Below the pieces are notes generated by a model, which ran no database searches, was not told the DNA's origin, and worked only from the letters and a program-made list of their open reading frames with translations. Below, piece by piece: positions 34,634-51,118 of a stretch of 64,000 bases of DNA (position 1 is its first letter; each line of letters begins with the position of its first letter). The position numbers and the translations under genes were made by a program. This DNA comes from an uncultured Bacillales bacterium (GTDB lineage Bacteria > Bacillota_I > Bacilli_A > RF39 > UBA660), in contig CANOYR010000008.1 in NCBI GenBank assembly GCA_947571655.1, positions 1,386-65,385 on the forward strand, in the 5' to 3' direction.

Positions 34634-34662
34634 TTGCACTTTCTTTTAAGTTGTGATATAAT
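34634..34662 (+). promoter_or_regulatory. Promoter TTGCAC-17-TGnTATAAT for first cohesin-like gene
   Basis: Hexamers 34634-39 and 34657-62 with extended -10 TG. Confidence 0.5.
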
Positions 34663-34688
34663 ATGGCACAACTTAGGGGGAAATTGAT

Positions 34689-35483
34689 ATGAAAAACAAA
34701 TTTATATTTCTTTTTATTGTATTTTTTATGATGAGTGTTCCAGTAGAGGCAATGGGGACTGCTAAAATTGAGTTTTTATCAGAAGATGAGATAAAAGTAG
34801 GCGATATTTTTACTGTAGATATGCAGTTATCAGAGATTCAGGATACTTATCGTGGTGTTGTTAGTTTGGAAGGAAGATTATCTTTTAATTCTGAGATGCT
34901 TGAACTACTTTCTTTTGAAGGGATAAAAGAGCCTTATCGTTTTCAAATGAATCAAAAAACAAGAAAATTAGCAGCTTTAGATTTTACTTTACAAAATGGA
35001 ATTACAGATACACTTACAGTTTATCAGTTTACTTTTCAAGCAAAGAAAATTGGGACTACTGTAATTACATTAAATGAAGCAAAAACGACAGATTGTAAGG
35101 AATATATTGATACTACAGTCATTGAAAAGAAAATACAAATTCAAGAAGAAAAAGAAATTCCAAAAGAAAGTCAAGAAATATTAGAATCATGTGAAAAGGA
35201 AGTAACTCCAAAAATAGAAGAACAAGTATTTGAGGATACTATTATAAAAGAAGATTCTGTAGAAAAAGAAATAAAACATCAGGAAGAAAAAGAAGATGAT
35301 TCAAAGGAAATTGTAGAAAATGATCAAGTAGAAAAAAATTTAGAAGAAAATTTGATTCGTTCAAAACCATTAAAAGAAGTGAAAGTATCAGAAACAAAAA
35401 AGAAAAAGGAATCTTTTTTCTTAGAAAAAGTTCAGAAATTGTTGAGTGATATATTTTCAGGAATTCAAGATTTATTAAAATAG
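34689..35483 (+). CDS. Secreted cohesin-like domain protein with E/K-rich tail
   Basis: Signal peptide. About 120-aa module (KIEFLSEDEIKVGDIFTVDMQL...FTFQAKKIGTTVITL) paralogous to the N-terminal modules of 4 other cluster proteins and matching the cohesin beta-sandwich pattern. Confidence 0.5.
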   Translation: MKNKFIFLFIVFFMMSVPVEAMGTAKIEFLSEDEIKVGDIFTVDMQLSEIQDTYRGVVSLEGRLSFNSEMLELLSFEGIKEPYRFQMNQKTRKLAALDFTLQNGITDTLTVYQFTFQAKKIGTTVITLNEAKTTDCKEYIDTTVIEKKIQIQEEKEIPKESQEILESCEKEVTPKIEEQVFEDTIIKEDSVEKEIKHQEEKEDDSKEIVENDQVEKNLEENLIRSKPLKEVKVSETKKKKESFFLEKVQKLLSDIFSGIQDLLK

Positions 35484-35574
35484 AGGAACTAGAATCCTCT
35501 ATTTCTTTTTATAAAAATCTTGTGTTCTGTTCTTACTATATGTTATAATACGATTATAAGGTAGGTAGTGTAGT

Positions 35575-36027
35575 ATGAAAATAAAAAATATGATATTTAA
35601 TAAAAAAGTAATTATTATTGGTGGAATTCTTTTTGTATTAATACTTGCGATTATAGGAATTATTATATGGAATCCTTTTACTTCTAATCAAGAATCGCAA
35701 AAAGAAGCATTGACTAAGAGATTAGAAACAATGGGGTCAGAGTTCTATGAGAATTTTTATTATAAACAAATCGATATTTTAGGAGATGAGAAGGCTTCTT
35801 TCTTAAGAGGATATCAAACTATTGGAATTAAGGTTGATTTGGATAATTTATCTCGTTATAATGGTCAGAATAGTGAAGAAGTTTTAAAAGAATTTGTAAA
35901 TAAGAAAACAAAAGAAGTTTGTGATAAAAATCGAACTCAAGTAATTATTTATCCAGAAGATCCATTTGATCAGAATTCTTATAAAATTGAAGTTCAGCTT
36001 GAATGTGGTTTAGAAGAAGAAAAATAA
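35575..36027 (+). CDS. Hypothetical membrane-anchored protein
   Basis: Single N-terminal TM helix. Confidence 0.3.
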   Translation: MKIKNMIFNKKVIIIGGILFVLILAIIGIIIWNPFTSNQESQKEALTKRLETMGSEFYENFYYKQIDILGDEKASFLRGYQTIGIKVDLDNLSRYNGQNSEEVLKEFVNKKTKEVCDKNRTQVIIYPEDPFDQNSYKIEVQLECGLEEEK

Positions 36028-36112
36028 TGAATTAAAAAGTAATTTCGTTTGAGAGATTACTTTTTTGTTTGATTCTTTATTTTTTTGTTAAAAAAGAGGA
36101 AAAGAATTTGAA

Positions 36113-36205
36113 TGTTTTATAATTTGACATTCTTTGACAGTTATTTACATCTATATTGTCAAAAAACAGTAGTAAATTGTCAAAGCCTTTGGTATACTCT
36201 AAATA
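36113..36205 (+). promoter_or_regulatory. Promoter region with repeated TTGACA/TGTCAA elements and extended -10 TGgTATACT
   Basis: TTGACA x2 direct, TTGACAG-N16-TGTCAA inverted, second TTGTCAA, then tgGTATACT ~30 nt before the RBS GGAG of the giant gene. Confidence 0.4.
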
Positions 36206-36234
36206 GAATAGGAAAAGGATATGGAGTTGTTAGT

Positions 36235-39200
36235 ATGAAGAAAAATATTAAATGTATTTTAGAAACTATCATTTTAATGATTATAATAGGTTTTCCAAAT
36301 CAAACGTTTGCGGCAGCAGAACACAAATTTAGTTTAAGTGGTGTTGTTTGTCCAATGGATAACTATGCTAGTGAAACAGGTAATGATAAATACTATGCTT
36401 GTATGGATGATTACTTAAATGGAAATCTAAGCGAAACTGTCGTAGCTGGGGATAAGGTAGAACCTGGAACCACTGTTATGGTAATCTTAAATTATAGTCC
36501 AGGGGATTCTCATAATGTGGTTGCTTTAAACGCAGCACTTCGTTATGACTCTACAAAATGGACACCAACGGTTCAAGAAGGATCAGATTTTTATGATGAA
36601 AGTCAATTTCCAAAGCCAGGAAGAAAGGTAACTTGGCAAACTTCTTTTAATGTTCGAGGACCTGGTGATATCAGTTATTATGTAGAGGATACTGCTAATA
36701 GCATGACACCACTTACTCAAGATACTGAATTAGGTTATGTATTTTTAAAATTAAATGATGATGTAGGTACTAATGAAGATATTACCTTAACTTTAGGTGA
36801 TGAACCAGGTGATACTGACCTTTCAGATGAAGATGGAAATCAGGTGAGACCTTACAAATTATCAAATATGAATTTAACTACTCCAGAAGCAGAAGAGTCT
36901 ACAGATGCTAGTTTAAAAACATTGACTGTAATGAATGGAACAACAACTTATTCTTTAGATCCAGCTTTTACACCAGGTGATGAAACCGTTACTTCGTATC
37001 AAGCAGTTGTACCTAATGATATTACTTCTGTTGATTTAGCAGCTACAGCAAATGATGCGGGTGCTACGGTTTTACCTGCAGGTATTGGAACAAAATCAGT
37101 GAGTGTTGGTGATAATTCTTTTGATATTGTTGTAACTGCTGCTTCAGGAGCAACAAAAACTTATACAGTTCATGTTTATCGTTTATCAAATGATGCAACG
37201 CTATCAAGCTTAACATTAACGAACCAAGTATCTATTGGAGCTTTACAAGCTGGAAAATATACTTATACAGCAACTGTTCCTTATGCTACAGCAAGTACAA
37301 CCGTTTCTGCTACAGCTACTAATACAAACGCAACTGTAAAAAGTGGTACGGGTCTTTGGAATTTAACGAATACTGGTGCAACAAAAAATACCAAAATAGT
37401 AAAAGTAGAAGCAGAAAACTGTAAAACAGAGTACAGAAGTGTACCTGGAAATAGTTGTACTGATCAGGACTATACAATTGAAATTACTCGTGAAGAAGCA
37501 TCTAGTAATAATTATTTGAGTAGTTTAACTACTGATGGTACTAGTGTACCAGGATTTGTAAAAACAACAAATACTTATACGCTTCCTGATGTTTCAGCAT
37601 CAAAAACTTCGATGACGATTGCAGCTGTTGTAGAGGATACAGGGAAAGCTAAAATTGTTAGTGGTATAGGTACTGTAAATTTATCAGTAGGAGATAATAG
37701 TTTTGACGTCGTTGTAGAAGCAGAAAATGGAACAAGGAATACTTATACAATTAAAGTAAAAAAATTATCAAATAATATCAAACTTGCTAGTTTAAATGTA
37801 ACAAGTAATCCACAAGGGAATTTATCACCTACTTTCTCAAGTACAAATACGAGTGGTTATACTTATACCTATGATGTTACAGCACCACAAATTACTGTGG
37901 CAGCAACAGTAGAGGATACAGGGAAAGCAAAAGTTGCTATTGTAGATGTTTCTACCAATGCAAGTGCAACAGGTACTCCTACATTGAATTCAGCAACCGA
38001 AGTTTTTTCAAATACCGTAACTAAAGTATCTGTCATTGTAACTGCAGAAGATGGAAGTGTTCAAGCTTATCCAATTACATTATCTCGTAGTAAATCTACA
38101 AATACTTATCTTTCAAGCTTATCAATCGATGAAACTTCTTTAGATCAAACTTTTGTAAAAACAACACGTACTTATACAGCAACTGTTGCTTCGAATGTTA
38201 CAAGTGTTACAGTAAATGCAGTAGCAGAAGATGCACCACGTGCAACAATTAAGTCAATTACAGGAAATAGCAATTTACAATTTGGAAATAATCCGATTGT
38301 CATCACTGTAAAAGCAGAAAGTGGTTTAGAAGAAACATATACAATTAATTTAACTCGTGAAAAATCAAATGTTGCAACTTTAGATGATTTAACAATCGAT
38401 GGTACAACAGTTTCTGGATTTAATAAAAATACATTGACTTATACAATTCCAGGAAGTGTTGCTTACGATAAAAAATCTGTTACGATTGGAACTATCAAAA
38501 CAGATCCAAATTCGACGGTAACCGGAGATGGATCCGTAAACTTAACAACTGGACAAAATCAAATTGTTATTAAAGTTACTGCTCAAAATGGGGTTGACTT
38601 TAATGAATATAAAATTAATATTGAACGTGATAAAAACAGTGATAATACAGTTCATGGATTAACAGTAGCAGGAAAAACTCCTACATTAAATAGTGAAGGA
38701 AAATATGAGGTAACTCTTCCAAATGGACAAACTACTTTAGATCCAAGTGATGTAGTTGTTACTGTAGGGGATGGAGCAACTGTTACAAAAGGAAATGCAA
38801 TTAACCTATCAACGGAAAATGTTAATACCTATCAGTTTACTGTTACGAGTGAGTCTGGGGTAACTGAAACTTATACTGTATTAGTTACAAGAGAACCATC
38901 TACTTCAACAACACTTTCTAAAGTAACTTTAAACATTGGAACAGATAGTAGCAGAAGTTGTGTAATGAGTGGTGATACTTGTAAAATTACAGTACCAGCA
39001 GATACAACAGATTTTACTTTAACTACTGAAATTCCATCCACTTCAACTATTTCACCAGTAGATGGAACTACACATACTATGGGAACTACAGAAAGTACTA
39101 AAAATATAACTTTGACAGTAACTGCAGAAGATGGAACAACAACAAAGGATTATACATTAGTCGTAGAAAGAGAAAAATCAACCGTAAATACTTTAGCTAC

Positions 39201-41280
39201 TCTTACTGTTAGCGAAGGAACATTAGATCCAGTATTTGCTCCAGGAACAAATTCTTATACAGTCAATGTAGCTGGTAATGTTGATACAATTAATGTAGCA
39301 GCAACTTTAACAGATCCACGTGCAGAAATTGTAAGTGGTACAGGAGATCATTCATTAAATGTAGGTACTAATACAATTACAGTTCGTGTAAAAAGTGAGT
39401 CTGGAGCGTTCAATGATTATAAAATTGAAGTAACAAGAGCACAGAAAACAGATAATGATTTATTAGATTTAACGGTAGATGGAACAACAGTTCCAGGATT
39501 TAATAAAGATGTCTTAGAATATACACTAACGAATGTACCTTATTCAACAACAAGTATCTTAATCGGAGTAACAAAGTCTGATAGTGATGCGCGTGTTACT
39601 GGTACTGGTAGAAAGGCATTAGTAACGGGACTAAATACATTCGAAGTAGTAGTAACTGCACAAGATGGAACACCAAAAACGTATACAATTAAGGTAACAA
39701 GAGAGAAAAACAATGAAGCAAGATTAAGTTCATTGGTAATTAATGGACAAACTTTAGATCCAGCGTTTGACAGAGATACATTTGACTATGAAATTACAGT
39801 AGCAGCGGAAAAAGATACGCTATCACCAAACGAAATCACAGCAATTCCTGTAGATTCAAATGCAACTGTAGTAAAAGATGCTGCACTTAGTTTATCTACA
39901 ACAATCGATAACTACTATGAAATTCATGTAACCGCAGAAGATGGAACAGAAAAAACTTATACAATTAAAGTAAATCGTCCAAAATCAAGTGATGCTACTT
40001 TGAGGGAAGTAAAGGTAACAGGTGGGTCTCTTTCACCAACATTCAGTGCAGGAGAAACGTCTTATACAATTACACTTCCAACAGGAAGCACAAACTTCGA
40101 GATTGAAGGTATTGTGAATGTAGGTACTACACAAGTATTTGGAAATGGATCTTATACATTAGCAGATGGTACTGTAACACTTACAACAAGGGCAGAAGAT
40201 GGAACAGAAAAAACTTATACATTTACTATTACAGAAGCTTTAAGTAACGATGCAACACTTGCTAGTTTAAGTGTAACAGATCACAATTTGGATAAAACCT
40301 TCGTACCAACGACTTTAGGATATGATATTGGAAATGTTACTTATGGTACAACACAATTAGTGGTAAATGCCGTAGCAAAAAATATTAATTCTACCATTCA
40401 ATATTTCTTAGATGGAGTAGAACAATCAAGTAATATTATTAATATTCCTAATACTTTAGGACAAAAACAGATTACTGTAACAGTAACAGCACCAGATGGA
40501 CAAACGAAAGAATCTTATACAATTGACTATACTTTAGTTCAATCAAGTAATGCTTATCTAAAGATGATTACACCATCAACAGGAACTTTAAATCCAACCT
40601 TTGAAAAAACAACAAAAGATTATGAAGTAGCAGTTAGTGGAGAAACTACAAGTATTGATTTTACAATTGAAGCAGATGATGTGAATTCTACAGTTGCAGT
40701 AAATGGAGATACTTTCCAAGGAACGAAAACAGTTACTATGTCTAGTTTAACTGTAGGAGAAAATCCATTAACGATCTTAGTAACGGCACAAGATGGAACA
40801 ACAAAAACGTATAAAGTAGTAGTGAAGAGAGAACTTACAATTTCTGAGGTGATTACTTCTGATATTTATGGACATACTATTTTAGATGATTTTATTGAAA
40901 CTGTTAAACTAGATACAATCGGAAGTGAAATGAAAGATCAATTAGATAATCCAAATGAATATTTAGAAATCTGGACGGCTGATGAATCTAGTCAGGTAGG
41001 GGATACAGATACTTTAGCAACAGGTATGATTATTAAATTGATGATTAATGGAGAAGAAAAAGATAGGAAATACGTTGTTGTTAAAGGGGATACCTCAGGA
41101 GATGGATTTATTGATTTATTTGATGCAGTAAAGATTTTAAATCATGTTTTAGAAGAAGAGGGTGAGATGTTAACTGGTGCTTATTTAGAGGCTGGTTATA
41201 TCAATGATGATAGTATCGTAGATTTATTTGATGCAGTTAAAATTCTAAATCATGTATTGCAAGAAGAACTCATTCATTAG
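36235..41280 (+). CDS. Giant secreted protein: N-terminal domain, 14 cadherin-like beta-sandwich repeats, C-terminal dockerin (type A)
   Basis: Signal peptide MKKNIKCILETIILMIIIGFPNQTFA. About 90-aa repeats beginning (A/S)xL(S/K)xLTV...YT(I/V)xVxR. C-terminus GDTSGDGFIDLFDAVKILNHVL...GYINDDSIVDLFDAVKILNHVL = duplicated Ca-binding dockerin segments. Confidence 0.6.
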   Translation: MKKNIKCILETIILMIIIGFPNQTFAAAEHKFSLSGVVCPMDNYASETGNDKYYACMDDYLNGNLSETVVAGDKVEPGTTVMVILNYSPGDSHNVVALNAALRYDSTKWTPTVQEGSDFYDESQFPKPGRKVTWQTSFNVRGPGDISYYVEDTANSMTPLTQDTELGYVFLKLNDDVGTNEDITLTLGDEPGDTDLSDEDGNQVRPYKLSNMNLTTPEAEESTDASLKTLTVMNGTTTYSLDPAFTPGDETVTSYQAVVPNDITSVDLAATANDAGATVLPAGIGTKSVSVGDNSFDIVVTAASGATKTYTVHVYRLSNDATLSSLTLTNQVSIGALQAGKYTYTATVPYATASTTVSATATNTNATVKSGTGLWNLTNTGATKNTKIVKVEAENCKTEYRSVPGNSCTDQDYTIEITREEASSNNYLSSLTTDGTSVPGFVKTTNTYTLPDVSASKTSMTIAAVVEDTGKAKIVSGIGTVNLSVGDNSFDVVVEAENGTRNTYTIKVKKLSNNIKLASLNVTSNPQGNLSPTFSSTNTSGYTYTYDVTAPQITVAATVEDTGKAKVAIVDVSTNASATGTPTLNSATEVFSNTVTKVSVIVTAEDGSVQAYPITLSRSKSTNTYLSSLSIDETSLDQTFVKTTRTYTATVASNVTSVTVNAVAEDAPRATIKSITGNSNLQFGNNPIVITVKAESGLEETYTINLTREKSNVATLDDLTIDGTTVSGFNKNTLTYTIPGSVAYDKKSVTIGTIKTDPNSTVTGDGSVNLTTGQNQIVIKVTAQNGVDFNEYKINIERDKNSDNTVHGLTVAGKTPTLNSEGKYEVTLPNGQTTLDPSDVVVTVGDGATVTKGNAINLSTENVNTYQFTVTSESGVTETYTVLVTREPSTSTTLSKVTLNIGTDSSRSCVMSGDTCKITVPADTTDFTLTTEIPSTSTISPVDGTTHTMGTTESTKNITLTVTAEDGTTTKDYTLVVEREKSTVNTLATLTVSEGTLDPVFAPGTNSYTVNVAGNVDTINVAATLTDPRAEIVSGTGDHSLNVGTNTITVRVKSESGAFNDYKIEVTRAQKTDNDLLDLTVDGTTVPGFNKDVLEYTLTNVPYSTTSILIGVTKSDSDARVTGTGRKALVTGLNTFEVVVTAQDGTPKTYTIKVTREKNNEARLSSLVINGQTLDPAFDRDTFDYEITVAAEKDTLSPNEITAIPVDSNATVVKDAALSLSTTIDNYYEIHVTAEDGTEKTYTIKVNRPKSSDATLREVKVTGGSLSPTFSAGETSYTITLPTGSTNFEIEGIVNVGTTQVFGNGSYTLADGTVTLTTRAEDGTEKTYTFTITEALSNDATLASLSVTDHNLDKTFVPTTLGYDIGNVTYGTTQLVVNAVAKNINSTIQYFLDGVEQSSNIINIPNTLGQKQITVTVTAPDGQTKESYTIDYTLVQSSNAYLKMITPSTGTLNPTFEKTTKDYEVAVSGETTSIDFTIEADDVNSTVAVNGDTFQGTKTVTMSSLTVGENPLTILVTAQDGTTKTYKVVVKRELTISEVITSDIYGHTILDDFIETVKLDTIGSEMKDQLDNPNEYLEIWTADESSQVGDTDTLATGMIIKLMINGEEKDRKYVVVKGDTSGDGFIDLFDAVKILNHVLEEEGEMLTGAYLEAGYINDDSIVDLFDAVKILNHVLQEELIH

Positions 41281-41294
41281 AAGTAGGAGGAAGT

Positions 41295-43490
41295 ATGAAA
41301 ATAAAAAAAAGTTTAAACTTATTAATCATTTTGGCATTAATATGCTCCATATTTGGTTTTTCTACTCAAGTAAAGGCAGAAACTGGTAGTGGAAGATTTG
41401 GTTTTGGAGGAAATTCAACAGTTAGTCTTGGTAGTAATATTACAATTACATTGTATGTAACAGATATTAAAGATGTTATCAGTGGAATTACTAGTATTGA
41501 GGCAAATTTAAGTTTTGATAGTCAATATTTGGAATATGTGTCTGGAACAGGAATGACTGATCCATATAAGGCAAGAATTAATACATCAGCAAATTATAAA
41601 ATTGCAGCTTTAGATACCGATTTGATTGGTTTTAACACTCAGACTACAATTATGACATTTGTATTTAAGGCATTAAAGGAAGGAGAAACAGAAGTTACAG
41701 TAACAGGAACAAAATTAACAGATAAGAAAAATCAATTGACTTCTACTGTAACTCCTAAGAAAATTACGATTGGTCCAAAGAGTACACCGACTCCAACGCC
41801 AACGCCAACGCAAAAGCCGACACCTACACCGACTCCAACGCCAACACCCTCAACACCGCCTTCAAAGAGCAGTGATGCAACATTAAAAACTTTAGTTGCC
41901 AGTGGATATACATTAAGTCCAAGTTTCTCAGCAGATACAACGAATTACACGGTAAAAGTACCAAGTGATGCAACAAATGTAATATTACAGGGAACAGCAA
42001 ATCATGGAAAAGCAACAATTGCAGGACTTGGAACAATTAATTTGACAGGAGATAGTACAACAGCAACGGTTACAGTAACGGCAGAAGATGGAAGTAAAAA
42101 AACATATACAATTCTTATTGAAAAAGAAAATAGGCAAGAAGTTCCAAAAGATGGGAATGCAAACTTAAAGAGTTTAAGTGTCAGTGGGTATACATTAAGT
42201 CCTACGTTTAAAAGTAATGTTAATACTTATTCTATGAGTGTTAAGAATAATGTTACAGGATTGGATGTTAGTGCAATTCCAGCAAGTGATAAAGCAAGTG
42301 TAGTAGTTACTGGAAATAAAGGATGGAAAGTGGGAGTCAATGTAGTTACTATAAAAGTAACGGCAGAAGATGGTAGTCAAAATACATATATTATCAATGT
42401 TACTAGAGCATCTTCTACTCCAAAAGAAACAGCTGCAGCAAAATCTACAGATAATTATTTGAAGTCTTTAATTATTAATTCTTCTCATGAAATTACGCCA
42501 GCTTTTGATAAGAATAAATCAAATTATACGGTTACAGTTCCTTATGAAGTTGATAAGTTAGATTTGACGTATCTTACTAATCATTCTAATGCGAAAGTAA
42601 AAGTCAATGGAAATAGTAATTTTAAAGTTGGAGAAGTTAATACTGTTGAAATTGAAGTAACAGCGGAAGATGGAACGGTTCGTATTTATACTTTAAATGT
42701 TACGCGTAGTACTCAAACTGGTAAAACAGATTTAAAAGAATTAACAGTAACGAATGGAGTTTTAAGTCCAAATTTTGATCCAAATGTTTTAGAATATAAT
42801 GTAAAAGTTGATGGAAAAATAGATCAGTTAGATATTCGTGCGATTGCTAAAGATCCTGATTCTAAAGTGGAAATTATTGGTAATAGTAATCTTAAAGAGG
42901 GAAAAAATACAGTTTTAGTAAAGGTTACAGATAAAAATGGATTTACGAAGTATTATACAATCAATGTAGAAAAGGAAACAAAGAAGAATACCATTTTAGG
43001 TCTTTCTCCACTTCAGTTTGGAATTATTACAGGTATTATTAGTTTATTATTATTGTTACTTCTCTTCTTATTATTTAAGAAAAGAAAGAAAGATGATGAA
43101 ACTTCAGTAGCATCAATTGCTCCTCAACCTCCAGTAACTCCGATTATTGAAGTAAAACCAGAATTTAATTTTGGTTCTAAGAACAGTTCTGATGATGATG
43201 TTGTCCATGGAAATTTCAATCAAAATAGTACAATTACAGGAACAAATTCTTTACCAGAACCTAAAGCAATAGAAGCAATTGAGGCAAGTTATGAGGAATT
43301 AGAAGAGAATGTTCCTTATGATCCATATGATGAAACAGTAACAAAAAGAGAAATTATTGATGCTATTAATGAGGCAACGAGAACAAAAGATCCAGCAAAA
43401 TTAAAGATGTTATTAGAACAAGATGCATTAAATCAAAAGAAAAAAGAATTAAAAAGAAAAGAAGCAGAATTAAGAAATAGAAAATATTAA
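41295..43490 (+). CDS. Membrane-anchored scaffoldin-like protein: cohesin-like module, Thr/Pro linker, 4 cadherin-like repeats, TM helix, cytoplasmic tail
   Basis: GGAGGAAG RBS. Cohesin-like N-module, (TP)n linker, repeats, hydrophobic IITGIISLLLLLLLFLLF followed by a KKRKK stop-transfer. Confidence 0.55.
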   Translation: MKIKKSLNLLIILALICSIFGFSTQVKAETGSGRFGFGGNSTVSLGSNITITLYVTDIKDVISGITSIEANLSFDSQYLEYVSGTGMTDPYKARINTSANYKIAALDTDLIGFNTQTTIMTFVFKALKEGETEVTVTGTKLTDKKNQLTSTVTPKKITIGPKSTPTPTPTPTQKPTPTPTPTPTPSTPPSKSSDATLKTLVASGYTLSPSFSADTTNYTVKVPSDATNVILQGTANHGKATIAGLGTINLTGDSTTATVTVTAEDGSKKTYTILIEKENRQEVPKDGNANLKSLSVSGYTLSPTFKSNVNTYSMSVKNNVTGLDVSAIPASDKASVVVTGNKGWKVGVNVVTIKVTAEDGSQNTYIINVTRASSTPKETAAAKSTDNYLKSLIINSSHEITPAFDKNKSNYTVTVPYEVDKLDLTYLTNHSNAKVKVNGNSNFKVGEVNTVEIEVTAEDGTVRIYTLNVTRSTQTGKTDLKELTVTNGVLSPNFDPNVLEYNVKVDGKIDQLDIRAIAKDPDSKVEIIGNSNLKEGKNTVLVKVTDKNGFTKYYTINVEKETKKNTILGLSPLQFGIITGIISLLLLLLLFLLFKKRKKDDETSVASIAPQPPVTPIIEVKPEFNFGSKNSSDDDVVHGNFNQNSTITGTNSLPEPKAIEAIEASYEELEENVPYDPYDETVTKREIIDAINEATRTKDPAKLKMLLEQDALNQKKKELKRKEAELRNRKY

Positions 43491-43507
43491 CATTGGAGGT
43501 ATTCATT

Positions 43508-44401
43508 ATGAAGAAAAACTGTAGGAAGAAATTGTATTTTATAATCCTATTTTTTTTCTTCTTTTTTTATCCTCTATTGGTCGGTGCTGAGGGCAAGGCA
43601 ACTACTGGAGTAAGAATCGAAGGAAAACCTTATTTAGATGAAACTTTTGATGTTGTTTTATATATTAATGATGTTTCTGGTACTACAAATGATGAAGGGC
43701 TTGCTGCTTTTGGAGGACATTTTTATTATGATACAGATAAATTAGAACTTGTTGAGTATCAATCGTTAGGTCCTTTTAATGTTAAAGTAGTAGGGAATAA
43801 TGTCGGTGGTTTTGGGTTGGATTATATTACTGGATATCAGGATGTTTTAAAATTCACGTTTCGTGCATTAAAACTGGGAGATGCAATCATTGACTATCCT
43901 GATAATGATCAACCAGATTCTAAAGCAAATCCAGTGAATATTGCTGGATGTCAGAAAATTGTTTCTATTACGAATCGTCCTATTCCTCTAACAATTGATC
44001 AAACGGATCTTTTTATACTTACCGGAAAGAGTAAAAAACTAACCGCTAGTTATCATTTAGAAGGAGAGGTAACAGGAGTTTGGACTTCTTTAAATCCTTT
44101 CATTGCTTCTGTTGATCAATTTGGTAATGTTACTGGAAATTCTCCTGGAGTTACAACGATTATTTATCAGACTAGTAATGGTTATCAGGTAGAGTGTGAA
44201 GTAACAATTTCCGATTATTTAAAGGGGGATGTTAATCAAGATGGTAAGATAACTATAAAAGATGTAATGGAAGTTATTTATTTTTATATCAAGAAGAAAG
44301 TTCCAACAGAGAGTTCTTATATTATTGGAGATATGAATGAGGATGGAAAATTGAATTTAAAGGATGCGAATTTGATTCTTGCTATTTATATGAAAAAATA
44401 G
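43508..44401 (+). CDS. Adaptor-like protein: cohesin-like module, BIG2-like domain, dockerin (type B)
   Basis: Signal peptide. C-terminal GDVNQDGKITIKDVMEVIYFY...GDMNEDGKLNLKDANLILAIY = canonical two-loop dockerin. Confidence 0.55.
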   Translation: MKKNCRKKLYFIILFFFFFFYPLLVGAEGKATTGVRIEGKPYLDETFDVVLYINDVSGTTNDEGLAAFGGHFYYDTDKLELVEYQSLGPFNVKVVGNNVGGFGLDYITGYQDVLKFTFRALKLGDAIIDYPDNDQPDSKANPVNIAGCQKIVSITNRPIPLTIDQTDLFILTGKSKKLTASYHLEGEVTGVWTSLNPFIASVDQFGNVTGNSPGVTTIIYQTSNGYQVECEVTISDYLKGDVNQDGKITIKDVMEVIYFYIKKKVPTESSYIIGDMNEDGKLNLKDANLILAIYMKK

Positions 44402-44806
44402 GAAAATGATTCAGTATTAAAGTGGTGTAAAGTAAAATGTTCACTGCTTTTTTTGTTTTTTATGAGAAAATTTATACCTTTTAGAGTTTGTATGTTTTTT
44501 ACTAGGTTTTGGGTGATTATTATCAATCTCTAAAACTTTAGTTTTTTCTTTGAAAAATAAAATATTAGTAGTAACTATCAATTTATAAATTATACAGGTC
44601 TTAGAGTTAAAGAATCATTTTGAAAGATGTAATCCAATTCTTGGTATTTATCTAGAAAAATAACGATAAAATTTTCTTTTTTGTTAAATTTAATTAGAAA
44701 TCAAAATCTAGACTTTCTAAGGTATAAGTGCTATAATGAAAATAGGACACGATAGGTGATAAGTAGGAAAGGAGAAGAAACAGTAAAAGGTGTTTCAAAT
44801 AATAAA

Positions 44807-45586
44807 ATGAAAAAGAGGTTGAAGAAGAATCAAAAAATAATTATAAAAATCTTTCTTTTATTTAGTGTTTTTTTGATAAATCCATGGATAGAAGTAAGTG
44901 CAGTAGATGATACTACTGGGAAAAGAAATATTGAGAATGCAACTGTAGAAGGGCTTTATAATTATCCATTTACAGGCTCTTATATCAAACCAGATACTAT
45001 TGTTGTAAAATATGAAGGGGAAGTATTAGTAGAAAAAACAGATTATACGATTAGTTTTTCTGGATTTTATGGACCAGGTACTATTACGGTTACTATTAAA
45101 GGAAAAAATAATTATGAAGGAACTTTAATTCAGGAATATGAAATTATTAGAAATACAGATTACATTCTAAAAATGAATAAACCAGTATTAAGTCTTTCTT
45201 TACAGGGCATGCAAACTTTAAGTTTATATACGACACCAAGTGTTTATATCAATCCTAGTAAAATTCAGTGGCAATCTTCTAATCCAATGATAGTTTCTGT
45301 TAATGAAAATGGAAACTTAACACCAATAGGGCTTGGGGATGCTACGATTACAGCAACATTTAATGGACAGAGTGTAACAAGTCAAGTAACTGTAGTAGAG
45401 TATTTAAAAGGTGATATTAATAAAGATGGGAAGGTAAATTTAAAGGATGTAATGGAAGTTATCTATTTTTATACTAAGAAGAAAACTCCAACGGAAGAGA
45501 GTTATTTATTAGGAGATATGAATGGGGATGGAAAATTGAATTTGAAAGATGCAACACCAATCCTAGAAATTTATTTAAAGAAATAA
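44807..45586 (+). CDS. Secreted Ig-like domain protein with dockerin (type B)
   Basis: Signal peptide. C-terminal GDINKDGKVNLKDVMEVIYFY...GDMNGDGKLNLKDATPILEIY, near-identical in pattern to the previous gene's dockerin. Confidence 0.55.
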   Translation: MKKRLKKNQKIIIKIFLLFSVFLINPWIEVSAVDDTTGKRNIENATVEGLYNYPFTGSYIKPDTIVVKYEGEVLVEKTDYTISFSGFYGPGTITVTIKGKNNYEGTLIQEYEIIRNTDYILKMNKPVLSLSLQGMQTLSLYTTPSVYINPSKIQWQSSNPMIVSVNENGNLTPIGLGDATITATFNGQSVTSQVTVVEYLKGDINKDGKVNLKDVMEVIYFYTKKKTPTEESYLLGDMNGDGKLNLKDATPILEIYLKK

Positions 45587-45589
45587 ATT

Positions 45590-46309
45590 ATGAAAATTAA
45601 GAAAAGATATAAACTTTACTTCATCAATATTATGATTTTAATCATAGTGGGAGTTTTTTGTTTTTCTATTTATCGTTATCTTCAGCTTTTCTATTTTAAA
45701 GAGGCAAGTAAAAAAGTAAATGAAAAACTTATTGAGGAGGTCATTAAGGAAACTGATTCTTCTAAGGAAGGAAAGGAAACGTCTGAATTTGTAATTGATT
45801 TTCAGAAATTAAAAGAAATTAATAAAGATGTGGTTGGTTGGATATATATTCCTAAAACAAAGATTAATTATCCGATTGTTCAAAGAGAAGATAATTGGTA
45901 TTATCTCAATCATGATATTTATCAAAAGTATAATATATTAGGATCTATTTATATGAATGCATATAATCAAAATGATTTTTCAGATGAAAATACTATTTTA
46001 TTTGGTCATAACAATCATCAAGATCATTTGATGTTTACAGACTTAAAAGAAGTCTATGATGGATTACTTGGTGAGGAACTTTTTATTTATATCTATACAG
46101 AAACAGAAACTTACATTTATCAGGTTTATTCTGTTTATCTTGCTGATCCATCTGATGAGGCACCACTAAATATAAAGACGAATTTTTTTGAGAAAACAGA
46201 GAGAAAGTTCTTATATGAAGCAAGTAATTTTAAAAAGACACTGACCTTATCTACTTGTTATAAAGATAGTAGTCAAAGAATTATTGTTCATGCGTCAAGA
46301 AGTGTCTAG
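45590..46309 (+). CDS. srtB: Sortase, class B-like
   Basis: N-terminal TM anchor, conserved His (ILFGHN), catalytic TLSTC motif, downstream Arg. Start overlaps the preceding stop. Confidence 0.65.
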   Translation: MKIKKRYKLYFINIMILIIVGVFCFSIYRYLQLFYFKEASKKVNEKLIEEVIKETDSSKEGKETSEFVIDFQKLKEINKDVVGWIYIPKTKINYPIVQREDNWYYLNHDIYQKYNILGSIYMNAYNQNDFSDENTILFGHNNHQDHLMFTDLKEVYDGLLGEELFIYIYTETETYIYQVYSVYLADPSDEAPLNIKTNFFEKTERKFLYEASNFKKTLTLSTCYKDSSQRIIVHASRSV

Positions 46310-46395
46310 AATAAAAAATAAACTATTTTATTTATGTCAAAGTAATGCTATAATAATGTTAATAAATAGAAAATATATCTATGGGAGGAAAAAGT

Positions 46396-49300
46396 ATGAA
46401 ACTAAAGAAGAAATATAAGGCAATATTGTTATCTTTTGTCTTAGTTGCACTTTTAACAGTTACTAATATGATTGTTGGGGCTTCTAATGTAGCTAAAATG
46501 TCAATAGAACCATTAGCGGGAGATATTGAACCAGGAGATACGTTTACTTTAAATGTAAAGCTTCAAGATTCTGAATATTTTAATGCTTTAGGATATCGAA
46601 TGATTTTCGATGATACAGCATTTGAATTTCAGAGTGCTACGTTCTTAGAGGGAAAAAATACATATAGTATTAGGGAAGTAAATAATGCAGGAAATGAGGT
46701 GCTTTTTGCTTCTATAAATACTAGTCAAACCAATTACGAAGATTGTAATGGGATTATAGCGACTGTAACTTTTAAAGCAAAGAGTACAGCTGTAGGAGAA
46801 TATGATTTTAATCTTGTAATGGATCGTGATACTGGAGATGATGAGTTCTTTAAAACGGATGTCGATATGAACGATATAGATTTAGAATTAGAAACAGGTT
46901 CTTTGAAGGTCAAAGTAAAAGTTGATGCTACAGATATTACAGTATCACCAACTGCATTAGATTTGATTAAAGGAAATACTTCTAAGATTACAATCGCTTC
47001 TGTGCCTAGTAAGGTAACGACATTAAGAAATGCTAGTATTACAGTAAATCCTAGTGGAGTTGTAACTGTTGATGATGATGGAAATGTAGAGGCAATTGGG
47101 AACGGAACAGCAACAATTAGTGTAACTGCTTATGGAATTACCAAAACAATTCCAGTGAGTGTTACTAATCCAATTACTGGAATTTCTTTAGATAAAACTT
47201 CTTTAGAATTAGGAAAAGGACAGACTTATCAATTAAAGGCAACGATTAATCCTAGTGATACATCAGAATCAAAAACAATTATTTGGAGTTCTACCAATGA
47301 TGATATTGCTACTGTTAGTAGTGATGGAACTGTAACAGCAGTTGGAAATGTTGGTGATACAAAAGCAACGATTCGTGCTACTTCTTCTAACCCAGCTTAC
47401 TATGCAGAGTGTGTAGTAGATATTGTAATTCCAATTACTTCTGTCAATATGGATCAAACTCCAATTACTTTAAATAAGGGTGAAGAAAGACAATTGTCTT
47501 TTACTTATGAACCTAGTAATACAACACAAGATAGAACAATTACTTGGGAGTCATCAGATCCAACTGTTGCTACTGTGAATAATGGAAAAGTAACAGCAGT
47601 AAAAGGTGGTACTACTACAATTACAGCTTCTATGTTAAATAAAACATGGACAAAATCAGTAGTTATTACAGTAGAAGTTGGATTAAATGATGTTATTTTA
47701 ACTCCAACAAGTGTCGAATTATTACCAGGACAAGAACAAACGATTCAGCCATCATTTGATCCGTTTGATGCTACTCATAAAGATATTACATGGGCTTCTT
47801 TAGATAGTGGGATTGCAAGTGTTGATGGGAATGGAAAAATTACAGCAGTTGCACCAGGAACTACAACGATTACTGCTACTTATCAAACATTGACAGGTGA
47901 AAAAACGAAAAATGTACAAGTAAAAGTGTTAATTCCAATTACTGGTGTAACAATTAAACCAAATAGTGCGATTACAATTAATAAAGGCGATTCAACTACT
48001 TTATCAGTAGAAGTTACTCCAGCGAATGCAGAAGAGGATAAAACTGTAACTTGGAGTAGTAATCAACCTAATATTGCATCTGTTGATTCATCTGGCGTTG
48101 TTACTGGGAATGCAAATGGTACTGCTGTAATTACTGGAACACTAAAAAATGGAAAAACAGTAACTGCAAATATTACTGTTCATGTACCAATTAGTAATAT
48201 CACTTTAAATAAAAGCGTATTAAATTTAAATAAAGGGGATACTTATCATGAATTAGTTGCAACTATTCAACCTAGTGATTCAACAATCAAAGCAGTTAAT
48301 TGGACAACTTCAAATGATAAAGTTGCTACTGTCAATGCTACAACTGGTGAGATTACTGCAATCGCAGATGGAACTGCTATTATTACAGCAACTGCAGAAG
48401 GACAAACTGCGACTGTTACTGTATATGTTACAACAGCAGTAACTAGTATTTCTATTAATCAAGGAACAACAAAAGCAATGTTAAAAGGGGATACAGGTAC
48501 TTTAACAGCGACTGTTCTTCCAAACGATGCAACAGATAAGACTGTAACTTGGTCATCTAATCAACCAGAAATTGTAAGTGTAGATTCTAATGGAAATATT
48601 GCTGCAAAAGCTGGTGGAACTGCAGTAATTACTGCAAAATCAGGAAGTAAAATAGCAAGTATTACAATTACGGTTCGTGTTCCAATTACAACATTTGAAC
48701 TTGCGCTTGAAGATCAAAATCCAACAATTTTGAGAGGTGCAAAGAATGCTAAAGTTTTAAAAACAGTAATTGGACCTGAGGATGCAACCGATGATAGAAC
48801 AATCGAATGGACTTCTTCTGATTCTACCATAGCTACTGTTGATAGTACTGGGAAGGTAACTGGAATTAAAGAAGGTACTGCAACGATTACAGGTAGGTTA
48901 ACTTCAACAGGTGCTACTGTTACTTCTAATGTTACAATTGAAGTAATTGAACTTACAGGAATTAAAGTAGAATTGGAAAGTGATGATATTTTAAAGGGAA
49001 GAAATTATCAAGTGAATGTAATTCCAATCCCAGAAGATTCAACAGAGCTTGAAAATATCGAATATACAAGTAGTGATGAAGATGTCTTTACCGTATCTAG
49101 TGATGGTGTCATTACTGGAATTAAAGAAGGTACTGCAACATTAACAGTAACAGTTTTAGGACCTGGTGTTACAAGAGCTGCTGCGATTACTGAGCAAGTT
49201 GAAGTTCATGTTCGTGAAGTTCAATTAGAGGGAATTCATATTATTCCAATTACAAAAGAATTAACGATTGGGGAAACAGCTCAGATTATGATTGATGTTT

Positions 49301-49617
49301 CTCCAGAAGATACAACAGATGGATTTGAATTAACCTATAAATCAAGTGATGAAAATGTAGCAATTGTAGACGAAAATGGTGTGGTAACAGCAATTGGAGA
49401 GGGGACAACTAAAATCACAGTAATTGCTACTACTGAGAATGGTGATAAATTTGAATCTGTAAGTGAGATTACTGTTGTAAATGGAAAAATTAAAGATGTT
49501 GTAAGTCCTAAGACCTCTATAGAATCTTCTACAAAATACTTGATTATTTCTGCAATTTCGATTGGAATGGTAGCAGGACTTATATTCACCAAAAAAAAGT
49601 TAAAAAAAGGAAAATAA
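46396..49617 (+). CDS. Cell-wall-anchored protein: cohesin-like module, 11 BIG2 repeats, SPKTS sorting signal
   Basis: GGGAGG RBS. BIG2 repeats (...LxxGxxxQLxATxxP...WxSSNxxxATV...G). C-terminus VVSPKTSIESS plus hydrophobic segment plus KKKLKKGK. Confidence 0.6.
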   Translation: MKLKKKYKAILLSFVLVALLTVTNMIVGASNVAKMSIEPLAGDIEPGDTFTLNVKLQDSEYFNALGYRMIFDDTAFEFQSATFLEGKNTYSIREVNNAGNEVLFASINTSQTNYEDCNGIIATVTFKAKSTAVGEYDFNLVMDRDTGDDEFFKTDVDMNDIDLELETGSLKVKVKVDATDITVSPTALDLIKGNTSKITIASVPSKVTTLRNASITVNPSGVVTVDDDGNVEAIGNGTATISVTAYGITKTIPVSVTNPITGISLDKTSLELGKGQTYQLKATINPSDTSESKTIIWSSTNDDIATVSSDGTVTAVGNVGDTKATIRATSSNPAYYAECVVDIVIPITSVNMDQTPITLNKGEERQLSFTYEPSNTTQDRTITWESSDPTVATVNNGKVTAVKGGTTTITASMLNKTWTKSVVITVEVGLNDVILTPTSVELLPGQEQTIQPSFDPFDATHKDITWASLDSGIASVDGNGKITAVAPGTTTITATYQTLTGEKTKNVQVKVLIPITGVTIKPNSAITINKGDSTTLSVEVTPANAEEDKTVTWSSNQPNIASVDSSGVVTGNANGTAVITGTLKNGKTVTANITVHVPISNITLNKSVLNLNKGDTYHELVATIQPSDSTIKAVNWTTSNDKVATVNATTGEITAIADGTAIITATAEGQTATVTVYVTTAVTSISINQGTTKAMLKGDTGTLTATVLPNDATDKTVTWSSNQPEIVSVDSNGNIAAKAGGTAVITAKSGSKIASITITVRVPITTFELALEDQNPTILRGAKNAKVLKTVIGPEDATDDRTIEWTSSDSTIATVDSTGKVTGIKEGTATITGRLTSTGATVTSNVTIEVIELTGIKVELESDDILKGRNYQVNVIPIPEDSTELENIEYTSSDEDVFTVSSDGVITGIKEGTATLTVTVLGPGVTRAAAITEQVEVHVREVQLEGIHIIPITKELTIGETAQIMIDVSPEDTTDGFELTYKSSDENVAIVDENGVVTAIGEGTTKITVIATTENGDKFESVSEITVVNGKIKDVVSPKTSIESSTKYLIISAISIGMVAGLIFTKKKLKKGK

Positions 49618-49618
49618 A

Positions 49619-50413
49619 ATGAAAAAAATATTAGGAATTTTCTTCTTATTACAAATTTTATGGATTCCTAATGGATATGCTAATGAGCTACCTACGATTT
49701 CTGTAGGTAGTTTTGATGTCTATGTAGGAGAAAAGATAGTAGTGCCTATTACGATTAAAAATAATCCAGGATGCAGTTATCTTGGAATTAAAGTTAGTTA
49801 TGATGAAAATGGTTTGGAATATATTGATTCTAAATTGAAAGGTTTAGAAAATGCTGATATGAAGAATATTCAAAAAGATGATAATGTGATTACACTTTAT
49901 GCGATTTCTTTTCAAGAAGATAAGAGTATGGATGATAATGATGTAATTGCAGAGATTACTTTTATGGTTAAGGAAAAGGCAACGACATCTACTTTAAGGG
50001 TAGATGTTACGGATTTTGGTGGAAATGATTTAGTAGATTATGAGTTTAGGGAGAATGATGGAATCATTCGAATTGTTGATAAGAGATTAAGTAATACTAA
50101 AGAGGATTTGACACAATATCTTTCTCCTTCTACAGATGCTGTAATTACTTGGAAATCAATGGATGAGGATATCGCAGAGGTTGATGAGAGAGGACAAGTG
50201 TTTTTTTCTAATCAAGGAACTACTACTATAACAGGAATTGATTCTGATGGAAATATTGTTGTCGAAAAGGAATATACTGTTGTCGATGAGGTAAAGCAAC
50301 AACAATCAGAAGAAAAGCAAAAAAATCAAGAGTTTTTTATTTTCATTTCTTTTGGAGTTTTTCTTATTCTTTGTTGTATTCTTATTTTTATAAGAAAAAA
50401 GATTAAAAAGTAA
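49619..50413 (+). CDS. Membrane-anchored cohesin-like module protein
   Basis: Start overlaps the upstream stop (taaaATG). Signal peptide, cohesin-like module, one Ig-like domain, C-terminal TM plus RKKIKK. Confidence 0.45.
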   Translation: MKKILGIFFLLQILWIPNGYANELPTISVGSFDVYVGEKIVVPITIKNNPGCSYLGIKVSYDENGLEYIDSKLKGLENADMKNIQKDDNVITLYAISFQEDKSMDDNDVIAEITFMVKEKATTSTLRVDVTDFGGNDLVDYEFRENDGIIRIVDKRLSNTKEDLTQYLSPSTDAVITWKSMDEDIAEVDERGQVFFSNQGTTTITGIDSDGNIVVEKEYTVVDEVKQQQSEEKQKNQEFFIFISFGVFLILCCILIFIRKKIKK

Positions 50414-50548
50414 ATGATGAGTAGTTTCGTTGTTTGCTTTTTCTATTGAGAACTTCTTTGTTAAGAAAAAGTGCGCTATTTCCATTTAAAATTGATAGAA
50501 TGGATTTTGAAAATAAGATAAAATGAATTACAGAAAGGAGAGAGAAAA

Positions 50549-51118
50549 ATGGGAATTGGAGAAAAGATTCTATCATTAAGAAAGGGTGCACATATTACTC
50601 AAGAAGAATTAGCTGAGAAATTAAATGTAACTAGACAAACGATTTCAAAGTGGGAGTTAGAAGAAACGGCACCAGATATTAAACAGGCAAAGGAGTTATC
50701 TAGGATTTTTCATGTTAGTTTGGATGAACTTGTAGGAAATGATGTAAAAGATTTGCTTGTGGAGAGGGTAAGTAATACAGAAAAACTTGCAGGTATGATT
50801 ATTAAAATCATTAAAATTGGAGGAGCAATTATTTTTGGTCTATTTTTCATTGAATTAATTGTTTTATTTTTCTTTAGTATTGGAGTGCTGGTTCAAAAAA
50901 ATACTTCTCATGCAAAAGTTTCTAATATTCGATGTACTATAGATGGAAAAGAATATTCTTATCAAATTGAGCACAAAGGAAATCATATTATTCATATGGC
51001 TGGAAATTCTTATTTTGAGGAGCATATCAATTTTTCTAAATATGAAAATCCAGAAGATTTATTTGGAGCTATCAATCATCATTTTATAGAAAACGGAGGA
51101 AGTTGTAGTAGGAATTAG
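50549..51118 (+). CDS. Membrane-bound XRE-family HTH transcriptional regulator
   Basis: LRKGAHITQEELAEKLNVTRQTISKWE HTH, then a TM helix and a ~80-aa extracytoplasmic domain. Confidence 0.6.
   Translation: MGIGEKILSLRKGAHITQEELAEKLNVTRQTISKWELEETAPDIKQAKELSRIFHVSLDELVGNDVKDLLVERVSNTEKLAGMIIKIIKIGGAIIFGLFFIELIVLFFFSIGVLVQKNTSHAKVSNIRCTIDGKEYSYQIEHKGNHIIHMAGNSYFEEHINFSKYENPEDLFGAINHHFIENGGSCSRN

Follow-up and report, generated by a model that had tools for sequence, protein, structure and literature searches.

A run of neighbouring genes for secreted, repeat-rich proteins with cohesin-like and dockerin-like modules, a sortase gene among them, raises the question of what these proteins assemble into and whether that assembly serves enzymes or adhesion. 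The window analysed here is a 64,000-nt stretch of DNA, the 64 kb of the host genome that are visible. Nine co-directional genes, g1-g9, were found at 34689-50413 on the + strand; a first-pass annotation had described eight consecutive + strand genes, with the right direction and with coordinates for g1-g10 that agree with ours. Cohesin and dockerin HMM matches within the whole window were confined to this locus and several divergent MAGs share its gene order, so that a chance grouping can be set aside. Searches with the Cohesin, Dockerin_1, Cadherin-like, Big_2 and Sortase models, the check proposed with the first-pass annotation, gave significant matches in the locus proteins, and its general reading, a cohesin-dockerin surface assembly displaying repeat fibres, appears to be the best explanation. 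In the form favoured in this study, with a probability of roughly 0.6, the locus would encode a self-contained cohesin-dockerin surface-display system made of two modules (A, g1-g4; B, g5-g9) and with no enzymes in the locus.

The host belongs to the uncultured Bacilli of the gut, is anaerobic and probably has a cell wall. The presence of peptidoglycan is indicated by a LysM protein encoded in the window together with the sortase.

Genes and anchoring signals

Sec-type signal peptides were recognised in the sequences of all structural proteins of the locus. The first gene of module A, g1 (34689-35483), encodes a secreted protein of 264 aa comprising a signal peptide, a cohesin (approximately 34752-35138) and a charged low-complexity tail, with neither a TM helix nor a sorting signal; orthologues were found in L007, L011, L013 and L014. 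The 150-aa product of g2 (35575-36027), to which no family was assigned, has a TM helix at its N-terminus, and two cysteines are invariant in its ectodomain of about 110 aa. A giant protein of 1681 aa is encoded by g3 (36235-41280), for which gene callers place the start at 36112; the signal peptide comes after the ATG at 36235. It is followed by a cohesin-like module (36307-36894), 14 Cadherin-like units (36901-40833; PF12733, E 1.1e-104 in Pfam), an X-like module (40840-41082) and a dockerin (41083-41277). The 14 units, the number also given in the first-pass annotation, were counted by a self-profile, with 12 resolved by Pfam. The 731-aa membrane anchor g4 (41295-43490) contains a signal peptide, a cohesin (41379-41792), a Pro/Thr linker, four Cadherin-like repeats by Pfam (again as first described), a TM helix (43017-43076) and a 137-aa cytoplasmic tail (43077-43487). 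Helix and tail are near-invariant across orthologues. The tail family comprises just 77 clusters among 1.84 billion representatives, in which it is mostly C-terminal in proteins of about 600-900 aa, the remainder being shorter sequences.

Module B begins with the adaptor-like 297-aa protein g5 (43508-44401), in which a signal peptide precedes a cohesin fold (43589-43987), one Big_2 domain (43988-44179; Pfam E 2.7e-10) and a dockerin (44225-44398). The putative cargo protein g6 (44807-45586, 259 aa) has a signal peptide, an N-terminal domain (44906-45196) with a weak match to Sgo0707_N2 alone (E 0.003), a Big_2 domain (45209-45385; Pfam E 3e-7) and a dockerin (45410-45583). Upstream of g6, at 44709-44737, is a sequence resembling a promoter with an extended -10; the promoter and terminator scan of the locus as a whole was at background level.

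The membrane-anchored sortase g7 (45590-46309, 239 aa) was recognised by the Pfam Sortase model (E 1.3e-17) and has the active-site motif TLSTC at 46244-46258. It had been called a class-B sortase, and its best NCBIfam model is indeed TIGR03064 SrtB (class B). The score of 126 bits stays below the equivalog cutoff (153.75), and the enzyme, by best match closest to class B, is described here as class-B-like. Some sources give distant homologues the name 'sortase B'. Adjoining it is g8 (46396-49617), a wall-anchored scaffold of 1073 aa with a signal peptide, a cohesin (46483-46905), ten Big_2 domains (46936-49458) and the only sorting signal of the locus (49504-49614), in which SPKTS is followed by a hydrophobic stretch and then by a K-rich tail. 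Pfam and a self-profile agree on ten Big_2 domains, where 11 had been counted, and the motif is kept as SPxTS in relatives (SPSTS, SPNTS and SPDTS). The membrane-anchored cohesin protein g9 (49619-50413, 264 aa) has a signal peptide, a cohesin (49682-50044), a Big_2 domain (50102-50269; Pfam E 2.2e-6) and a C-terminal TM helix (50333-50392), and its orthologue comes right behind that of g8 in L007, L009 and L084. The three modes of anchoring recognised at first pass thus stand: the TM helix with tail in g4, the sorting signal in g8 and the C-terminal helix in g9.

The next gene, g10 (50549-51118, + strand), encodes a 189-aa XRE-type HTH protein (HTH_3, Pfam E 5e-16) with a TM segment at 50798-50893, in keeping with the membrane-bound XRE regulator of the first-pass annotation. 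It was found in L007 and is missing from L009/L010 and L084, and is considered a neighbour and possible regulator outside the conserved locus.

Cohesin and dockerin modules

The isolated N-terminal modules were scanned against Pfam Cohesin (PF00963), for which the gathering score is 24.1 bits. It was exceeded by the modules of g1 (26.7 bits, E 6.9e-6), g4 (33.7 bits), g8 (32.9 bits) and g9 (47.5 bits; E 2.8e-11 in the Pfam scan). The giant, which was not among the five proteins first credited with such a module, scored slightly below it (23.2 bits, E 8.3e-5) and brings the number to six. The g5 module had no Pfam match; its AF2 model (pLDDT 78) matched the Clostridium perfringens cohesins 2jh2, 2vo8 and 2w1n in Foldseek, with target-normalised TM scores of 0.75-0.77 against the single-module structures 2jh2 and 2vo8. 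Seventeen of 20 orthologous modules matched Cohesin, and their profile found the PDB cohesins 2jh2, 2o4e and 2ozn with a best E of 3.5e-9. Identity among the six paralogues is 10-34%, as against 39-77% to their own orthologues, which makes them old paralogues maintained as distinct modules; those of g1 and g4 cluster together (34% identity).

Three proteins (g3, g5 and g6) end in dockerins, as had been noted at first pass. Those of g5 (E 8.6e-8) and g6 (E 8.2e-9) pass the Pfam Dockerin_1 threshold, and the C-terminus of the giant alone reached 19.1 bits against a gathering score of 22.9. Dockerin_1 was matched by five of five sequences scanned, namely four giant orthologues and the classical dockerin of L009_g0. 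A profile of the giant C-terminus in the window and three orthologues (A7) matched the ScaH dockerin 8ajy_B in the PDB (E 2.3e-5), and hhalign against the other dockerins of the locus gave a probability of 94% (E 8.5e-8). Judged by these comparisons the module is a divergent dockerin; the first residue of its second Ca loop is Tyr in place of Asp. It is preceded by the conserved X-like module.

The sub-threshold Pfam results for the giant's dockerin and the g5 cohesin would suit a reading in which these modules are generic beta-sandwich and EF-hand domains with other ligands, do not bind each other and are clustered through shared regulation. This appears very unlikely given that the dockerin-ended giant strictly adjoins a cohesin-bearing anchor across distant taxa, that dockerin cargo lies beside cohesin scaffolds in loci with module B only, and that the Ca-loop residues are conserved. 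In the favoured reading the cohesins and dockerins would bind each other. The excess of six cohesin-bearing proteins over only three dockerin proteins suggests that partners are missing or that some cohesins are redundant.

Conservation and two separable modules

Syntenic loci were found in MAGs of uncultured gut Bacilli, with 56-73% protein identity for g5 orthologues. The whole gene order is shared by L007/L013 (an uncultured Bacillales MAG), L009/L010 and L011, and is kept up to the contig ends in L014 and L016. More distant genomes carry either half alone. Module A consists of the giant X-dockerin fibre and the cohesin/Cadherin-like/TM anchor with its conserved cytoplasmic tail, and the g4 orthologue always comes immediately after the giant. 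Such a pair occurs in Clostridium sp. CAG:433 (L018), UMGS855, HRGM_2006, an 'uncultured Mycoplasma' MAG and L025, where the HMMs found no g5/g6-type dockerin or sortase in the available flanks. It is accompanied by g2 in L021, L026 and L028, with a second cohesin protein in L021. Analogous pairs of a dockerin-ended Ig-repeat giant and a cohesin-Cadherin-like-TM protein were found in Acutalibacteraceae and Ruminococcaceae MAGs (L033 and L043).

Module B comprises dockerin cargo, sortase, wall-anchored cohesin-Big_2 scaffold and membrane cohesin protein. It stands alone in L084, from a sporulating Firmicute, as genes for CAP-Big_2-dockerin, Big_2-dockerin, sortase, cohesin-Big_2 with SPDTS, and cohesin-Big_2-TM proteins. 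The split suggests which dockerin pairs with which cohesin. The giant's N-terminal cohesin and module B were seen together in one clade, which does not count as an independent observation. The giant's cohesin, the conserved g2, the strong conservation of the g4 tail and the separability of the modules were all absent from the first-pass annotation.

Is the locus part of an enzyme complex?

No GH or CBM family was matched by Pfam in the ten proteins g1-g10, as first reported, or at any related locus examined. The conclusion drawn from this, that the locus is not a cellulosome, was weak in logic, since only 64 kb were seen and dockerin-bearing enzymes may sit elsewhere in the genome. The scaffoldin (sca) cluster of Ruminococcus flavefaciens is itself not known to encode enzymes, those of that species being scattered over the genome. 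The locus could likewise encode the scaffoldins of a genuine complex for polysaccharide degradation, of cellulosome or amylosome type, with the Cadherin-like and Big_2 arrays acting as spacers or carbohydrate-binding modules. A carbohydrate-binding role has been suggested for PF12733 in its Pfam description, and by the same token the giant 'fibre' could be a glycan-binding device and not a protein adhesin. The surplus of cohesins over dockerin proteins also fits a scaffoldin cluster, and amylase-dockerin enzymes are still found in atypical ruminococcal systems whose scaffoldins are TM-anchored (PMC13463774).

Against this, no dockerin protein found in the window or in some 15 related loci is catalytic, their other domains being Ig-like, LRR_5, CAP or cohesin, and the dockerin relatives recovered from a search of 5.8 billion proteins carry no catalytic Pfam domain. 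Each scaffold has one cohesin, with no multi-cohesin array to gather enzymes. The hosts presumably belong to uncultured Bacilli whose genomes are small and have few CAZymes. The cargo seen is adhesin-like (Ig-like, LRR and CAP), including LRR_5 + Big_2 + dockerin proteins of 850 and 1470 aa in relatives, and never includes a glycoside hydrolase. A scaffoldin cluster therefore appears improbable, and surface display remains the preferred reading.

Comparison with known systems

All parts of the system have precedents, namely non-cellulosomal cohesins, sortase-anchored ScaE, X-dockerin adhesins and TM-anchored scaffoldins. The earlier statement that no such system had been described was too strong as to principles, as can be seen from PMC2930009, PMC10066038, PMC7456326 and PMC13463774. 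Cohesin and dockerin modules outside cellulosomes are known (Peer et al., 2009, as cited in PMC2930009 and PMC10066038). In C. perfringens (NagJ/GH84C and NanJ/GH33), a low-GC gut Firmicute, non-cellulosomal modules provide the closest solved cohesins both by sequence profile and by fold to the g5 model; there they link secreted glycoside hydrolases into complexes, whereas here they are found on non-catalytic anchors, adaptors and fibres.

R. flavefaciens and R. champanellensis (ScaE; X-module-dockerins of ScaB and CttA) also have a single-cohesin anchor protein, ScaE, linked to the wall by sortase, as well as LRR-dockerin proteins like those in relatives of the present locus (PMC2930009). As proposed here for the giant, a non-catalytic protein is docked there by a C-terminal X module and dockerin, the XMod-dockerin:cohesin pair being a load-bearing adhesion bond (PMC7456326). 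The present locus differs in that neither cellulases nor CBMs were seen, in its SPxTS motif and class-B-like sortase in place of LPXTG, in a docked protein that would be a fibre of 14 Cadherin-like repeats, in a proposed anchor (g4) that spans the membrane, has a conserved cytoplasmic tail and is not the sortase substrate, and in hosts that are Bacilli-type MAGs, not Ruminococcus. The X-like module of the giant, compared with Pfam, had no detectable sequence similarity to any family.

In the atypical ruminococcal systems (R. difficilis and others), cohesin proteins are similarly held by C-terminal TM helices, scaffoldins have Ig-like and LRR adhesion domains, and many cohesins escape sequence-based methods owing to their divergence; unlike the present locus, these systems include dockerin-bearing amylases or GHs as well as numerous multi-cohesin scaffoldins, and the available part of the source makes no mention of a conserved cytoplasmic tail, a Cadherin-like giant or an embedded SrtB (PMC13463774). 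Clostridioides difficile SrtB with its (S/P)PXTG substrates resembles g7 and g8 in that a class-B-type sortase is encoded near few substrates with a motif starting SPxT (PMC4155245). The motif here ends in Ser where that of C. difficile ends in Gly, and the enzyme falls below the SrtB equivalog cutoff.

Proposed assembly

Domain identities, anchoring signals, synteny and the separability of the modules were observed, whereas cohesin-dockerin binding, its pairs, the topology and a role in adhesion are inferred. In the assembly proposed, the giant would be secreted and kept on the cell by its C-terminal X module and dockerin, which would plug into the N-terminal cohesin of g4. The latter is predicted to be a type-I membrane protein with four Cadherin-like repeats as its stalk and a cytoplasmic tail that presumably touches an intracellular partner. 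The 14 Cadherin-like repeats of the giant would form an extended fibre with its own cohesin as the distal tip. With its g4-type cohesin, g1 may offer an alternative, non-covalent docking site for the giant's dockerin, and g2 may be an assembly factor. In module B, the sortase would cut the SPxTS signal of g8 and join it to peptidoglycan, leaving a cohesin atop a stalk of ten Big_2 domains, and a related cohesin, the second of the module's display sites, would be presented by g9 on a short stalk fixed in the membrane. Both would catch proteins with the second dockerin type, here g6 and g5, and in relatives also the large LRR_5/Big_2 proteins and the CAP-domain protein. Having both a cohesin and a dockerin, g5 would be an adaptor able to bridge modules A and B.

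The same parts may instead serve mainly as a structural coat or for cell-cell cohesion, as an S-layer-like envelope or through aggregation and biofilm formation by like-with-like Cadherin-like contacts. Since the giant has both a cohesin and a dockerin, its geometry would permit head-to-tail chains or the cross-linking of cells, and a fixed core kept in several lineages is unlike a variable adhesin. A role of cohesin and dockerin proteins in adhesion between cells of syntrophic consortia may also have been suggested before. The variable LRR_5 and CAP cargo of relatives resembles ligand-binding adhesins, however, and the Pfam scan found no SLH domain or other S-layer hallmark in g1-g10; a mainly structural role is considered the less likely reading. 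If the preferred surface-display reading is true, these gut Bacilli would be coated in layers of long Ig-like fibres and adhesin-type cargo, with which they may attach to host, dietary or microbial surfaces.

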